48,767 nt of DNA from the NCBI GenBank assembly GCA_016213175.1, contig JACRBF010000016.1, positions 1-48,767 on the forward strand, read 5' to 3'. Source of the stretch: Chlamydiia bacterium (GTDB taxonomy: Bacteria; Chlamydiota; Chlamydiia; Chlamydiales; SM23-39). Under the pieces are notes generated by a model. It was not told where the DNA came from, did no database searches, and was given only the letters and a program-made list of their open reading frames with translations. The translations under genes were made by a program, and so were the position numbers. Below, piece by piece: positions 95 to 35,362 of this stretch; within the stretch, counting starts at the first letter, position 1, and the number at the start of each line of letters is the position of its first letter.

Positions 95-262
95 TATACC
101 CGTTCCACCTCAAAAGCGCCCAAAGCAAATCGATTCAAATCTTCTCAAATCGAATAAAACAGCGCGGTTAATATTAAGTCAATATTGACCGCGCTTTTTT
201 ATTCGATTTTAGAGAGATTTCAATGCGATTTTCTCGGGTGCCTTTGAGGTGGAACGGGTATA
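95..262. mobile_element. Family A palindromic MITE-like element, full copy A1 (168 bp)
   Basis: Termini TATACCCGTTCCACCTCAAA...TTTGAGGTGGAACGGGTATA are inverted repeats and the arms pair over about 80 nt. The centre AATAAAACAGCGCGGT-N19-ACCGCGCTTTTTTATT is a GC stem with an A-run before and a T-run after. Near-identical copies at 1000-1146, 2854-3021 and 20042-20160. Confidence 0.9.
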
Positions 263-993
263 GAAGACTGATTCAACCGAAATGTTTTCGGCGTCATAGG
301 GAAAGGCTTGGTCTTGTGGCCCCAGTAACTTTTATCCTCTCCCTCATAGCAGACTAGAAGCTGTTCTCCTGGGTGAATCGTTTTTTTAGCCACATAGATG
401 AGCTCAAAGGGAGCCGGTTCGAGTCCTGATAAGTTGGCGGGAATATGGATGAAGCAGGCTTCAATATTGGGTGTTTCCGAATGGTTAATAAAGCGGGTGA
501 AATTTCCCCTTTTAAGAGCGTCTAGGTCGAGTGCGTAGAGACGGCGCGGGTGATAACGACGGGTGGAATCCCACTTGCTCTGTTCTTCTTTTGTCAGGCG
601 CAGGTCTGAAATAAGGGCAAAAGTGTAATCAGAATCGTTCTCCATATTCTGGGGGCATAAAAGCACTTTTCCCGAGTAGGGGGCAATCGGCGTTCCCTTT
701 AGGATAGGTTTAGCTTCGGGGTGGAGGAAAATCCCGTATCCGAGCTTGCCTTTGAGTTTTTTCATCAGCAGGTAGTTTGGTAGGCCTTTTTCTTGGATTT
801 CCTTGAGAATAGAGGGCAACCCCGTCACAATTTTTTTGCTTGCCCGCGGGATATGAATCTTGTTCTTCTTAATCTGTTCCAAACAAAAAATAAACAAATC
901 TTTGCTAATTTCCTGTCTTTGTAATCTGAATTTCATAATTAAATTATAAGATAGGCGCATAGTGGTCCATTGTTTTTTTTGCATGCAATGCAC
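220..993 (-). CDS. SET-domain protein (putative lysine methyltransferase, chlamydial NUE/cpnSET-like)
   Basis: Translation contains RGNFTRFINHSETPNIEA and QLLVCYEGEDKSYW, the NHS-x-x-PN and post-SET-like signatures of SET domains. The last 13 codons (IPVPPQRHPRKSH) and the TGA stop lie inside repeat A1. The start is uncertain (ATG at 993 or an internal Met). Confidence 0.8.
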   Translation of the reverse strand: MHCMQKKQWTTMRLSYNLIMKFRLQRQEISKDLFIFCLEQIKKNKIHIPRASKKIVTGLPSILKEIQEKGLPNYLLMKKLKGKLGYGIFLHPEAKPILKGTPIAPYSGKVLLCPQNMENDSDYTFALISDLRLTKEEQSKWDSTRRYHPRRLYALDLDALKRGNFTRFINHSETPNIEACFIHIPANLSGLEPAPFELIYVAKKTIHPGEQLLVCYEGEDKSYWGHKTKPFPMTPKTFRLNQSSIPVPPQRHPRKSH

Positions 994-999
994 ATCGTA

Positions 1000-1146
1000 T
1001 ATACCCGTTCCATCTCAAAAGTGCCCAAAGCAAATCGATTCAAATCCTCTCAAATCGAATAAAGCAGCGAGGTTAATATTAAGTCAATATTGACCTCGAC
1101 TTTTTTATTCGATTTTCTTGGGTGCCTTTGAGGTGGAACGGGTATA
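1000..1146. mobile_element. Family A element, copy A2 (147 bp, internal deletion in one arm)
   Basis: Same termini as A1. It lacks about 21 bp between two TCGATTTT direct repeats in the right arm. The core stem is CGAGGT/ACCTCG instead of CGCGGT/ACCGCG, a double compensatory change. Confidence 0.9.
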
Positions 1147-1217
1147 GAGAGCATCCTCTTTTCCCAAGAAAAAATTTCTTGCTCTTCCTCTTCTTGCTCA
1201 GCGATACTGCAAATCCT

Positions 1218-32639: not shown

Positions 32640-33039
32640 ACAACTTGAAGCAGAATACATGAAGAAAGAGGTTCCTAGTTTTACAATTGGGGATACCGTT
32701 CGAGTGAATACTCGGGTGATCGAGGGAGATAAGGAACGGATACAGGTATTTACAGGTACAGTAGTCGCTAAAAAAGGGACTGGTCTTTCCGAAACGTTTA
32801 CCTTGTATCGTACTGCTTATGGTTCCAGCATGGACAGGGTGTTCCTGCTCCATAGCCCAAGACTTGCCAATATCGAAGTGATCCGCTCCGGGAAGGTGCG
32901 TCGTGCTAAGCTCTATTACCTGCGTGGTAAGTCGGGCAAAGCGACGAAGCTCCGCGAGCAGTTCAAAACAGAAGAAATAGCCTCTGTTTCTTCTGCCCCC
33001 CCTTCTCCTGAAGCGTCTGGAGATGGGGCAGGTTCTTAG
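32617..33039 (+). CDS. rplS: 50S ribosomal protein L19
   Basis: PSFTIGDTVRVNTRVIEGDKERIQVFTGTVVAKKG..RRAKLYYLRGKSGKA. GTG 32617 is preceded by AAGGAGA (32604-32610). There is a short Ser/Pro-rich C-terminal tail. Confidence 0.9.
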   Translation: MSRSPIIEQLEAEYMKKEVPSFTIGDTVRVNTRVIEGDKERIQVFTGTVVAKKGTGLSETFTLYRTAYGSSMDRVFLLHSPRLANIEVIRSGKVRRAKLYYLRGKSGKATKLREQFKTEEIASVSSAPPSPEASGDGAGS

Positions 33040-33667
33040 TTCTGAACTTTTCAGATTGCGCACAATGTCTCTGTACGAAGCGGGACTGCTCACCGAAGGG
33101 TTTGTGCGCATCGCTGGCGTTGACGAGGCAGGGCGTGGGCCTTTAGCCGGGCCTGTCGTCGCCGCTGCCTGTTTGTTTTCAGAGAGCCTTTTTCTGGAGA
33201 GACTCAATGACAGCAAACAATTGACGGCGAGGCAAAGAGAGAAGCTCTACGATCAGATTACCGCCTGTTCAGAAATTCAGTACGGGATTGGGATGGCGGA
33301 TGCTCCAACGATTGATCGAATCAACATCTTGCAAGCCACTTTTTTAGCCATGCAAAGAGCGGTTTTTTCCCTTCCTTCAGCCCCTGATTACTTATTAATC
33401 GATGGGAATCAGCTTCCCCCCTTTTCCATCCCTGCGAAACCGATCATCTCCGGAGACGCTCTTTCCGTATCTATTGCGGCCGCCTCTATCTTGGCAAAAG
33501 TCACACGCGATAGACTGATGGAAGAATATGACCAACAGTGGCCTTCCTATGGCTTTGCTAAGCATAAAGGATATGGTACGAAGGCACACCTAGAGGCGAT
33601 CCAAAAATGGGGGCTTTGCCCTATCCATCGCACAACGTTTAGGATCAAATGCACAAGCCCATCTTGA
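33023..33667 (+). CDS. rnhB: Ribonuclease HII
   Basis: AGVDEAGRGPLAGPVV, DSKQL and HKGYGT motifs. The start is uncertain (33023 or ATG 33065). Confidence 0.9.
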   Translation: MGQVLSSELFRLRTMSLYEAGLLTEGFVRIAGVDEAGRGPLAGPVVAAACLFSESLFLERLNDSKQLTARQREKLYDQITACSEIQYGIGMADAPTIDRINILQATFLAMQRAVFSLPSAPDYLLIDGNQLPPFSIPAKPIISGDALSVSIAAASILAKVTRDRLMEEYDQQWPSYGFAKHKGYGTKAHLEAIQKWGLCPIHRTTFRIKCTSPS

Positions 33668-35244
33668 TCGTGGGGGCCGGTCCCACGGGACTGATGATGG
33701 CGGCAGCCCTTGCCCGCTATGAGATTCCTTGCCGTCTGATTGACCTCGCCCCCCATCCTTCTACGGAGTCGAAAGCGCTTGCGATCCAGGCAAGGACTCT
33801 GGAGATCTTCCAAGATTTCGGGATTGTAGATTCTTTCTTGCATAAAGGGCAGCCTGTGCGGGCTGTCAACGCGTTCAGCCAGAAGGTGTATTTAAGCCGT
33901 GTAGAATTCAAAGACCTGGATTCTCCCTATCCGTTCATTTTGAGTTTAGAACAAAAGCAGACGGAGGAGATTCTCAGCGACTGTTTGCGCTCTTTTGGTC
34001 TTTCTGTAGAAAGGGGGAAGGAGCTTGTTTCTTTTAGAGAGACGGAGCAAGGGATCGAGGCTCATATCCGAAGTTGCGTGACGGGACAAGAAGAGCACGT
34101 GGAAGCTTCATGGCTCATCGGGTGCGATGGCGCCCATAGTCTCGTGCGTAAACTCTTGCAAATGCCTTTCGAGGGACGTGCGTTGAAAGCGGTTTTCTCT
34201 TTGGCGGATGTCCGTCTTCTGTGGCAATATCCCCATAATGAGGCCTACCTCTATTTACAAGACACCCTAGCAGTCATTCCTATGCCAGGGGTAGAGCGCT
34301 ACCGGCTCATTTTTTGTCTGCCGAGATGCCAAACATCCCCTCCTGCAGAGTCTAAGATGCGTCATGGAATTGTCCCTTCCGAGGAAATGCTCATACCCAC
34401 ACTTACAGAAATTCAGATGCTTGTGAGCCGCTGCATTGGTTCTGACACATGTGTTATTGATCCTGTATGGATGTCCCATTTTCGGATCAATAGCCGCTTG
34501 ATAGGCAGTTACAGAAAAGGAAATGTGTTTTTAGTGGGCGATGCAGCCCACGTGCATAGCCCTATCGGCGGACAAGGGATGAATACAGGATTGCAAGACG
34601 CGCTGAATTTAGCTTGGAAATTAGCTCTGGTGCATCGAAAGCAGGCATCCCCCATATTGCTTGATACCTACACTGCCGAGAGAAGAAGAGTGGCAAGACG
34701 ACTTCTGCTGGCGACAGAGACAGCCTCGAGACTCATGACTCTACGCAATCGATTTGCCATCTTGCTGCGCGATTGGATCATTGCCCGTCTTGCCCGTTTC
34801 AAAGGCTTTCGTAAAGCGCTTGCAAGGGCTGTATCTCAAACAGCTTCCCGCTATTCTCAAAGTGTCATTGTCATAGAATCTTCTTCATTTTCCTCAGGCC
34901 CTCGAACAGGTACTCGCATCTGCGATTCTCTTCTCACCAATACAGCGCGCAATCGGGAGCCGCTCCACCGTCTCATCCTTTTTTCAGGCCCATACCCCAG
35001 TGATGAGTCCGTTCAGGAACTCATCCAATTAGCCCATCGGATTGTCTCTACAGCTGCTTACCCTATAGAATCGCTTCTCGTTCTTTTAACGCCCGAGATT
35101 TTCTCATCGCTCCCTATCCGATGCCTCTCTGATGCCAGTGGCTATTTTCACAATCGATATGGAGCTAAACAATCAGCGCTTTATCTGATCCGCCCAGATT
35201 TGATCGTTACTTTTCGCTCCATGCCACCAAGTTTTCCTCAATAG
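33649..35244 (+). CDS. FAD-dependent aromatic-ring hydroxylase-like monooxygenase
   Basis: ILIVGAGPTGLMMAAAL (GxGxxG) and VFLVGDAAHVHSPIGGQGMNTGLQDALNLAWKL (GD-x6-P / G-x-N motif), plus a thioredoxin-like C-terminal region as in PheA/TfdB-type enzymes. The TAG stop is the first 3 nt of repeat B3. Confidence 0.8.
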   Translation: MHKPILIVGAGPTGLMMAAALARYEIPCRLIDLAPHPSTESKALAIQARTLEIFQDFGIVDSFLHKGQPVRAVNAFSQKVYLSRVEFKDLDSPYPFILSLEQKQTEEILSDCLRSFGLSVERGKELVSFRETEQGIEAHIRSCVTGQEEHVEASWLIGCDGAHSLVRKLLQMPFEGRALKAVFSLADVRLLWQYPHNEAYLYLQDTLAVIPMPGVERYRLIFCLPRCQTSPPAESKMRHGIVPSEEMLIPTLTEIQMLVSRCIGSDTCVIDPVWMSHFRINSRLIGSYRKGNVFLVGDAAHVHSPIGGQGMNTGLQDALNLAWKLALVHRKQASPILLDTYTAERRRVARRLLLATETASRLMTLRNRFAILLRDWIIARLARFKGFRKALARAVSQTASRYSQSVIVIESSSFSSGPRTGTRICDSLLTNTARNREPLHRLILFSGPYPSDESVQELIQLAHRIVSTAAYPIESLLVLLTPEIFSSLPIRCLSDASGYFHNRYGAKQSALYLIRPDLIVTFRSMPPSFPQ

Positions 35245-35362
35245 ACCTCTTGCGTAACTAAGGGTTCGTTGATTTTCTTGGGTGCCTTTGAGGTGGAACG
35301 GGTATATAACCGCGATATTGCCCCCCAATTTTTGCATCGAAAATCGGCTCAAAAGAGGTCTA
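35242..35362. mobile_element. Family B element, copy B3, internally deleted and chimeric with a family A terminus
   Basis: TAGACCTCTTGCGTAACTAAGGGTTCGTTGATTTTC + TTGGGTGCCTTTGAGGTGGAACGGGTATA (family A end, 35271-35306) + ATATTGCCCCCCAATTTTTGCATCGAAAATCGGCTCAAAAGAGGTCTA. Confidence 0.85.

Follow-up and report, generated by a model that had tools for sequence, protein, structure and literature searches.

Palindromic MITE-like elements at the stop codons and last codons of genes in a compact chlamydial genome

Introduction

Why do so many genes in one stretch of a chlamydial genome end in or beside a short palindromic repeat? The stretch is contig JACRBF010000016.1 of a Chlamydiia bacterium, and the 48,767 nt (48.8 kb) of this one genome that were analysed are called the window. 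A first-pass annotation had described three palindromic families at the 3' ends of seven genes, targeted to gene ends and suggested to be moved by one trans-acting transposase. In our reading, to which we give a probability of about 0.8, the repeats form several families of non-autonomous, fully palindromic elements that resemble MITEs (miniature transposable elements with inverted repeats), insert at TA dinucleotides with duplication of the TA, and persist at the stop codons or last codons of a compact genome. Alignment with related genomes supports MITE-like insertions rather than genic similarity.

The window has a G+C content of 48% and a coding fraction of 88.6%. Its genes are typically chlamydial and include a CT021-family protein, cyoABCD and the run rpsO-tadA-rpmE-prfA-prmC-ffh-rpsP-trmD-rplS; gene identities are backed by Pfam matches. 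At least five palindromic families were found, represented by 13 copies or fragments. Families A, B and C of the first description are real, and D and E have to be added. Of the window's non-coding DNA, about 29% (1.63 kb) consists of these elements. Comparison loci that were fetched from other genomes are given with L-numbers.

Insertions revealed by relatives

Four independent comparisons with relatives, at cyoA, the 24638 open reading frame (ORF) with tadA, the 19625 ORF and an amidohydrolase gene, show insertion. Element C2 (12157..12235, plus strand) consists of TA, a 75-nt perfect hairpin with a 35-nt stem, and TA, and is located in a Tyr codon of cyoA. More than 100 cyoA orthologues are 285-305 aa long and end in ...LFDQI(L/I)DKYM(Y/L/N)P(R/K)xx. 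The cyoA product of the window reads ...DRY and continues with a 46-residue tail in place of the conserved end. Deletion of 77 nt, the 75-nt palindrome and one TA, restores the conserved end ...DRYMYP..., and the TGA of cyoA and the start of cyoB then overlap as ATGA. The insertion point is eight codons before the native stop, and the 77 nt shift the frame. Two relatives (L034 and L035) have the uninterrupted cyoA site AAATAT/ATG. The restored end and the empty sites fix the boundaries of C2 and show the TA duplication. The ORF does not end within the element, as first annotated; it crosses all of C2 and stops at 12298-12300, 65 nt beyond C2 and inside cyoB.

Element B1 (25298..25470) is made of TA, a 169-nt palindrome and TA, and exactly separates the 24638 ORF from the GTG with which tadA starts. 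Orthologues of the 24638 product equal the window protein in length (217-220 aa), and the gene overlaps tadA by 4 nt in three relatives. In the window, 171 nt are inserted between CAG-TA and the GTG start, and the TadA N-terminus (V)NSDQDLRFMREALKEAKKA aligns with MNPSDPIFMREALKEAKKA in a relative. A TA duplication is needed here because excision of the whole TAGACC...GGTCTA leaves no stop codon and fuses the two genes in frame. With the duplication, the ancestor would read CAG TAG TG, an ordinary stop/start overlap; for B1, the case is thus one of ancestral-state logic applied to the aligned genes. C2 and B1 share their TA duplication with IS630/Tc1-mariner-derived elements, and the early suggestion of a TA target duplication is borne out at these two sites.

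Homologues of the 19625 ORF end in ...KKLLS, ...KKLLK or ...KKLLSTG before the stop. Homology ceases at residues 135-140 of 156, where element A5 starts (...KKKLLQRG/YTRSTS...), which places the native stop at the TA that now begins a TAT codon or beside it. A5 (20042..20162, minus strand) has lost one arm and is situated between the convergent 19625 ORF and aspS. Orthologues of the amidohydrolase mostly end 0-5 residues past WLNGK(K/R), and a few reach about 15. The window protein has 55 residues more; its Pfam domain ends at residue 543 of 599. These residues are encoded across C1 (5323..5487, minus strand), which is flanked by TA on both sides and has a loop occupied by the palindrome D (5373-5438, target CTAG). 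An end within C1 had been assumed for the amidohydrolase ORF. It runs through C1 and D from end to end, and its stop codon (5314-5316), 7 nt beyond the composite, overlaps the following gene in TGATG. Alignment with orthologues, a check proposed at the outset, showed that the orthologues of cyoA, the amidohydrolase and the 19625 ORF are without these tails.

The spacer between prmC and ffh measures 193 nt in the window vs 33 nt in a syntenic relative. It is filled by B2 (30023..30202), which represents a B subfamily with other but self-complementary termini (CTAAGAGGATG...). The prmC stop precedes B2 by 1 nt and not by 3 nt as first counted. The window prmC is seven residues longer than that of the syntenic relative (window 29998-30021 vs L040:14530-14556): the TAA stop of the relative is CAA in the window, and the ORF continues to a TAG just before B2. 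In 44 kb from three relatives, neither an element copy nor a long palindrome was present. Families A, D and E have TA flanks, and no empty site was found for them in the relatives examined.

Gene ends shaped by elements

Nine genes of the window stop in, stop at or read through an element copy. Most of the seven cases counted originally hold, and gene 3092..3604 and cyoD are added. As had been proposed, SET, MNT and the 19625 ORF have stop codons inside elements. SET (220..993, minus strand) ends in A1 (95..262), which is composed of TA, a 164-nt palindrome and TA. The right arm of A1 provides the last 13 SET codons and the TGA (220-222), giving the tail IPVPPQRHPRKSH; the tail before insertion is predicted as ...IVLPLEVHPKFIQPNWIGFN followed by a stop (...NQSSIVLPLEVHPKFIQPNWIGFN). 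MNT (1634..1951) terminates in A3 (1924..1951, plus strand), a fragment with a 21-nt A terminus and a decayed remnant, which supplies the last nine codons (ISVPPQSP) and TGA. The 19625 ORF has 17 A5-derived codons and then TAA (20093-20095) inside A5.

Other genes use a stop codon at the very border of an element. The 24638 ORF and the FAD monooxygenase gene do end, as described earlier, with the TAG that opens a B copy: in both, TAG is TA plus the first base, of B1 and of B4 (35242..35362), respectively. The native stop of the FAD monooxygenase gene would have been TAA. The TAG of cyoD is formed by the first three bases of E (15231..15292), a single-copy palindrome of TA, 58 nt and TA with a CTAG target. 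For gene 3092..3604, the stop is the TAA at the head of a 14-nt end fragment of B2 type (3081..3094, minus strand, TAAGAGGATGTCTA), which matches B2 exactly at 30024-30037. In no affected gene does an element enter more than eight codons ahead of the stop.

The families differ in how they close reading frames. In A, all six frames are closed within 13-31 codons. In B1 and B4, nearly all frames are closed within 0-6 codons, with one B4 frame open. C is open in precisely the frame TA/T ACC, the one used in cyoA and the amidohydrolase gene.

These observations suggest a simple mechanism. The elements would insert at TA dinucleotides and duplicate the TA. With a coding fraction of about 89% and many stop/start overlaps, very few TA sites tolerate an addition of 60-180 nt. 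The tolerated sites would be the TA in TAA and TAG stops, the last few codons, short spacers and other element copies; the last of these leads to nesting, as seen for D within C1, A4 within B3 and an A arm within B4. The first base of the element may then decide the fate of the protein. If it is G (B and E), the left TA and G would rebuild TAG and leave the protein unaltered. If it is T (A and C), TA and T would form the Tyr codon TAT, and translation would enter the element. Read-through would end at an element stop in A, after 13-31 codons, or beyond the element in C, which is open in frame.

Position bias and target sites

The positions of the elements agree with this mechanism. Of the eleven primary insertion loci, ten fall in a zone that reaches from eight codons ahead of a stop codon to 7 nt beyond it, compared with an expectation of about 20% among tolerated TA sites (binomial P ~1e-6, the zone being chosen post hoc). 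Elements occupy spacers that are otherwise 1-21 nt long or overlaps. Large intergenic spacers of 135-565 nt, mostly promoter regions, have no copy. Among the reconstructed targets, CTAG is found in 3/9, although it is the rarest TA context in the window (3.3%; P ~0.003), and NTAG in 6/9.

The claim of gene-end targeting has to be split. The concentration at 3' ends is real, and we infer that it is mainly a survival bias in a compact genome rather than targeting. A real target preference is conceivable because three of the nine targets are CTAG. A transposase may actively target gene ends, by recognition of CTAG or NTAG including TAG stops, or of hairpin or terminator DNA, and the bias would then come from the insertion mechanism. 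The two target counts fit this idea, as do the frequent copies within other palindromic copies and the empty 135-565 nt spacers beside occupied ones of otherwise 1-21 nt. However, CTAG is itself palindromic and may belong to the inverted repeats of D and E, the targets of C2, C1 and B4 are not NTAG, and A2 lies in a 5'-5' spacer. Most of the large empty spacers hold promoters, and insertions would be removed by selection there too; the sample is small. Active targeting is conceivable and the strongest of the alternatives, yet we consider it doubtful.

Structure of the families

Self-BLAST of the window located repeat blocks at 81-265, 997-1160, 2746-3028, 5323-5490, 12157-12238, 15230-15293, 20041-20162, 25295-25474, 30023-30202 and 35238-35356. 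Outside 81-35356, the self-comparison found only small repeat remnants near 48.1 kb. Copies are about 60-180 nt long (62-180 nt measured) and none carries a transposase gene. All full copies read TA, perfect inverted ends, TA, and the terminal inverted repeats are perfect or near-perfect in A, B1, B4, C, D and E. The TA-N-ACC termini that had been assigned to all families are present in A, C, B1 and B4; the B2 ends differ.

Family A is 168 nt long, counting both flanking TAs, with 48-nt arms around a 72-nt core hairpin. Its 20-nt terminus TATAYCCGTTCCAYCTCAAA has nine occurrences in the window vs none in 100 shuffles. The full copies are A1, A2 and A4. A2 (1000..1146) has a 21-nt internal deletion and is located in the spacer of the divergent SET and HEPN genes, as the sole full copy away from a 3' end. 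A4 (2854-3021, target CTAG) is nested in the degenerate B3 (2746..3091), after which the B2-type end fragment follows. A5 lacks one arm, and fragments are located at 1924-1951, 18490-18524 and 35271-35306. Family B has a length of about 173-180 nt and comprises B1, B2, B3 and B4 with the end fragments 3081-3094 and 48096-48108; the latter is a 13-nt right-end fragment (CGCAAGAGGTCTA) upstream of leuS and beyond the part that the first-pass annotation covered. B copies carry GTAG (caGTAGACC; TTTGTAGACATCC). B4 is a shortened B with the A arm 35271-35306 inside, between the convergent FAD monooxygenase gene and prfC. Family C is a hairpin with a 35-nt stem and the copies C1 and C2.

A and B have the block GATTTTCTKGG in common, and chimeras of their modules recur. 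The B/A chimeric fragment 18490..18524 and the stop of the CT021-family gene (18532..19542, minus strand) are separated by 7 nt, a second chimera is B4 at 35242-35362, and locus L013:1140-1256 has A arms around a B2-type arm. The shared block and the recurrent chimeras suggest recombination between the families or a common origin.

Folding and a regulatory role

Intact full-length copies fold at -60 to -112 kcal/mol, 12-21 standard deviations below shuffles. The A cores match the pattern of intrinsic terminators, a G+C-rich stem with a T run, on both strands. Transcription could end at the long hairpins and at the terminator-like A core, or RNase III could cleave them, and transcripts of neighbouring genes may be affected. 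Rfam searches at gathering thresholds of the window and eight loci returned tRNAs only.

The repeats might instead be host-selected regulatory hairpins of the REP, ERIC or SPRITE type, acting as terminators, stabilisers of mRNA 3' ends or RNase III sites, with mobility as a secondary trait. The A cores are among the strongest hairpin-plus-T-run sites of the window, the folding is strong (z -8 to -20), the core hairpin is kept via compensatory changes across species, and a 3'-end location fits the role. Several observations contradict it. Several copies are located inside likely operons (cyoA-cyoB, 24638 ORF-tadA, and amidohydrolase-TPP enzyme gene) whose genes are translationally coupled in relatives; a terminator would be harmful at these places, and C2 harms the conserved cyoA C-terminus. 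Terminator-like sites overall are not enriched over shuffles, and close relatives are without any such elements. The A subtypes at L024, L016 and L031 have the T-tract 5' and the A-tract 3' of the stem. This flipped tract polarity led us to reject a mobile terminator as the conserved function. Host selection as the primary cause is unlikely, somewhat more so than targeting.

A-type ends in other genomes and the transposase

Scans of genomes and metagenomes for the A end yielded only about 20 chlamydial copies, a number that does not suffice for a census of whole genomes. A copies are present in other metagenome-assembled genomes (MAGs) of Chlamydiota with an invariant 20-nt end and a diverged interior. 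Across chlamydial MAGs, 19 of 40 pairs of the core hairpin have double changes that keep the pairing. In L007, from another uncultured bacterium, a neighbour gene is orthologous to the CT021-family gene of the window, and an unrelated rarA-like gene ends in the same A-encoded tail, SIPVPPQRHPR. No meaningful hit came from a BLASTN search of plasmids with A1.

The 20-nt A end TATACCCGTTCCACCTCAAA also terminates hairpin elements of about 55-75 nt in several marine Gammaproteobacteria, including Alteromonas, Shewanella, Thalassotalea and MAGs (L001, L003-L005, L011, L012, L020, L023, L027 and L030; for example, L005:5631-5703 and L012:3095-3148). The gammaproteobacterial hairpins share a further motif, AATGCNNGTTTCAG, which the chlamydial copies lack. 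In L003, one copy lies in the rpsP-rimM spacer, with 1 nt between it and the start codon of rimM. The outward-facing GAGGTGGA in the A end was considered as a ribosome-binding site of the downstream gene and rejected, as it fits only this one gammaproteobacterial locus.

A Pfam search detected no transposase among the window ORFs, in agreement with the first-pass annotation. The putative link between family A and a transposase comes from L007:2955-3571 (minus strand), an element of about 617 nt between the convergent rarA-like and pyruvate kinase genes. It has an A arm as left end and a degenerate A arm as right end. Starting 75 nt from the left end, it encodes the first ~167 residues of an ISAs1-family transposase (Pfam DDE_Tnp_1_assoc, 1e-13; NCBIfam transpos_ISAs1, 2e-19, profile positions 2-119 of 314). 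The element is possibly a deletion derivative of the parent of family A.

Other candidates were discarded. The ORF after an A end in L021 has, identified by eye, a Fic-type motif instead, and the IS5-like ORFs of L018 are located outside the element. An IS630-type (DDE_3) transposase with the same ends was present neither in the window nor in the fetched loci. A second inverted A end 1-3 kb from the first, the sign of a full-length insertion sequence (IS), was absent in every locus examined. Scans of viral contigs gave chance coding matches only and no transposase relative. The ends of B, C, D and E share with A at most NACC, that is, 3-4 bases after TA, so the single shared transposase proposed earlier is unsupported.

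Several points weigh against insertion at TA by MITE-like elements with subsequent survival. An autonomous element was found for none of the families A to E. The only transposase remnant between A-type ends is that of the ISAs1 family in L007. ISAs1-family elements, in the sense of ISfinder, make target duplications of 8-10 bp and not of TA. Such duplications were not seen around the A copies, which points to an unusual ISAs1 subgroup or to a secondary association. In family A, the TA is inseparable from the terminal repeat, with an invariant TATACCC and no empty site found, and B2 has ambiguous ends and an ambiguous target (TA or TAA). The statistic on 3' ends uses a zone defined after seeing the data and covers 48.8 kb of genome only. 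The maintained pairing of the A core may mean structural selection and not neutral transposon decay.

In a further scenario, family A would derive from a previously unrecognised ISAs1-related IS group with TA or no duplication. The end TATACCCGTTCCACCTCAAA shared with Gammaproteobacteria would then imply a transfer between phyla, and the chlamydial copies would be adapted to gene junctions. Features cited for such an adaptation are stops in all three frames at both B ends, the terminator-like core and outward Shine-Dalgarno-like GAGG motifs. If true, junction-adapted derivatives would split translationally coupled genes without killing either. We regard this scenario as improbable. Less credible still are REPIN-like elements moved by RAYT (IS200/IS605-type Y1 transposase) as single-stranded hairpins, which whole-length hairpins with pairing maintained by compensation, the GTAG in B copies and the lack of a DDE transposase in the window would suit, but to which the TA duplication at C2 and B1 is foreign, with no Y1 transposase among the window ORFs, sizes of 60-180 nt with conserved ends of 20-48 nt instead of paired 20-40-nt REPs, and the ISAs1 (DDE) remnant between A-type ends in L007.

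Comparison with known systems

Full-text literature searches revealed no description of such elements in Chlamydiae; in the genome paper of Estrella lausannensis, repeats appear only as an assembly problem. By analogy, the closest systems in behaviour are the Correia elements of Neisseria, which duplicate a TA target and form long hairpins, and the nested BOX/RUP/SPRITE clusters of pneumococci. Correia elements (CREE) are MITEs of 100-200 nt with terminal inverted repeats starting TATA... and many gene-adjacent copies; they are co-transcribed, their long hairpins are cut by RNase III, and they can alter gene ends and expression (PMC10969869). They have no sequence similarity to the window elements and are not palindromic over the full length. 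Most Correia elements are located upstream of genes, and they bring promoters and a site for IHF, whereas the window elements are biased to stop codons and last codons. The BOX, RUP and SPRITE elements of Streptococcus pneumoniae are small families that cluster and insert into each other, and SPRITE resembles a rho-independent terminator (PMC10969869). Families and host are unrelated to those studied here, and a stop-codon association is not described for them in PMC10969869.

The first-pass annotation had compared the repeats with Rickettsia palindromic elements (RPE), palindromic repeats of an obligate intracellular bacterium that add peptide segments to proteins (PMC10969869). The likeness is limited to the addition of an element-encoded peptide and is otherwise loose: RPEs are in-frame inserts within ORFs, and native protein continues on either side, whereas the window elements replace or extend C-termini and C2 shifts the frame.

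MITEs derived from IS630/Tc1-mariner elements, such as the cyanobacterial Nezha, duplicate a TA target like the window elements. IS630 prefers CTAG targets, a context found in three of the nine targets of the window. They differ in that the remnant associated with A-type ends belongs to the ISAs1 family. The REPs of Escherichia coli are palindromes directly after or overlapping stop codons. Unlike the window elements, they are 20-40 nt long, RAYT-associated and without target duplication.

Further observations

The HEPN/MNT toxin-antitoxin pair (1218-1634 and 1634-1951) is flanked by A2 and the A3 fragment. Elements separate SET, this pair and a DnaJ-domain gene from each other, and the region may be a hotspot of accessory genes. 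At 7609-8028, the match of a 139-aa ORF to the Autotransporter beta-domain is confined to the final 107 positions. The surrounding stretch of about 1 kb (7114-8118) is otherwise empty, and the ORF is probably a gene remnant. Near the right edge, 48311-48347 is a palindrome with a 15-nt stem (AACACCTTAAGCGAG..CTCGCTTAAGGTGTT) that has no relation to families A to E. From 48639 to 48767, a tandem 24-nt repeat (TGCTGCTTGTTCTACCTGTGGTTG-like) continues past the edge of the window; it probably represents a minus-strand coding region with repeats.

Another unrelated long palindrome (CCACCAGTTATAATTCATTTCGTTAAGATGG...) is located at L021:2270-2420, after a gene with a Fic-type motif on a chlamydial metagenome contig. 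These genomes thus hold more palindromic families than the five of the window. The only public contig with an identical ffh protein (L017, Logan SRR12113407, 1782 nt) begins in the middle of B2, which indicates that these repeats break short-read assemblies.

Implications

The elements are explained by known biology; the stop-codon logic is neat and of use in annotation, but specialists would hardly find it very surprising. Relevant to annotation are the nine genes of the window with 3' ends shaped by elements. Relevant to the reading of chlamydial proteomes are the non-native C-termini in the products of cyoA, the amidohydrolase gene, SET, MNT and the 19625 ORF. The window offers a concrete picture of how small transposable elements may persist in a near-gapless intracellular genome: the TA in TAA and TAG would be among the rare places where an insertion does no harm, and whether the protein stays intact or gains a new tail would depend on the element's first base.

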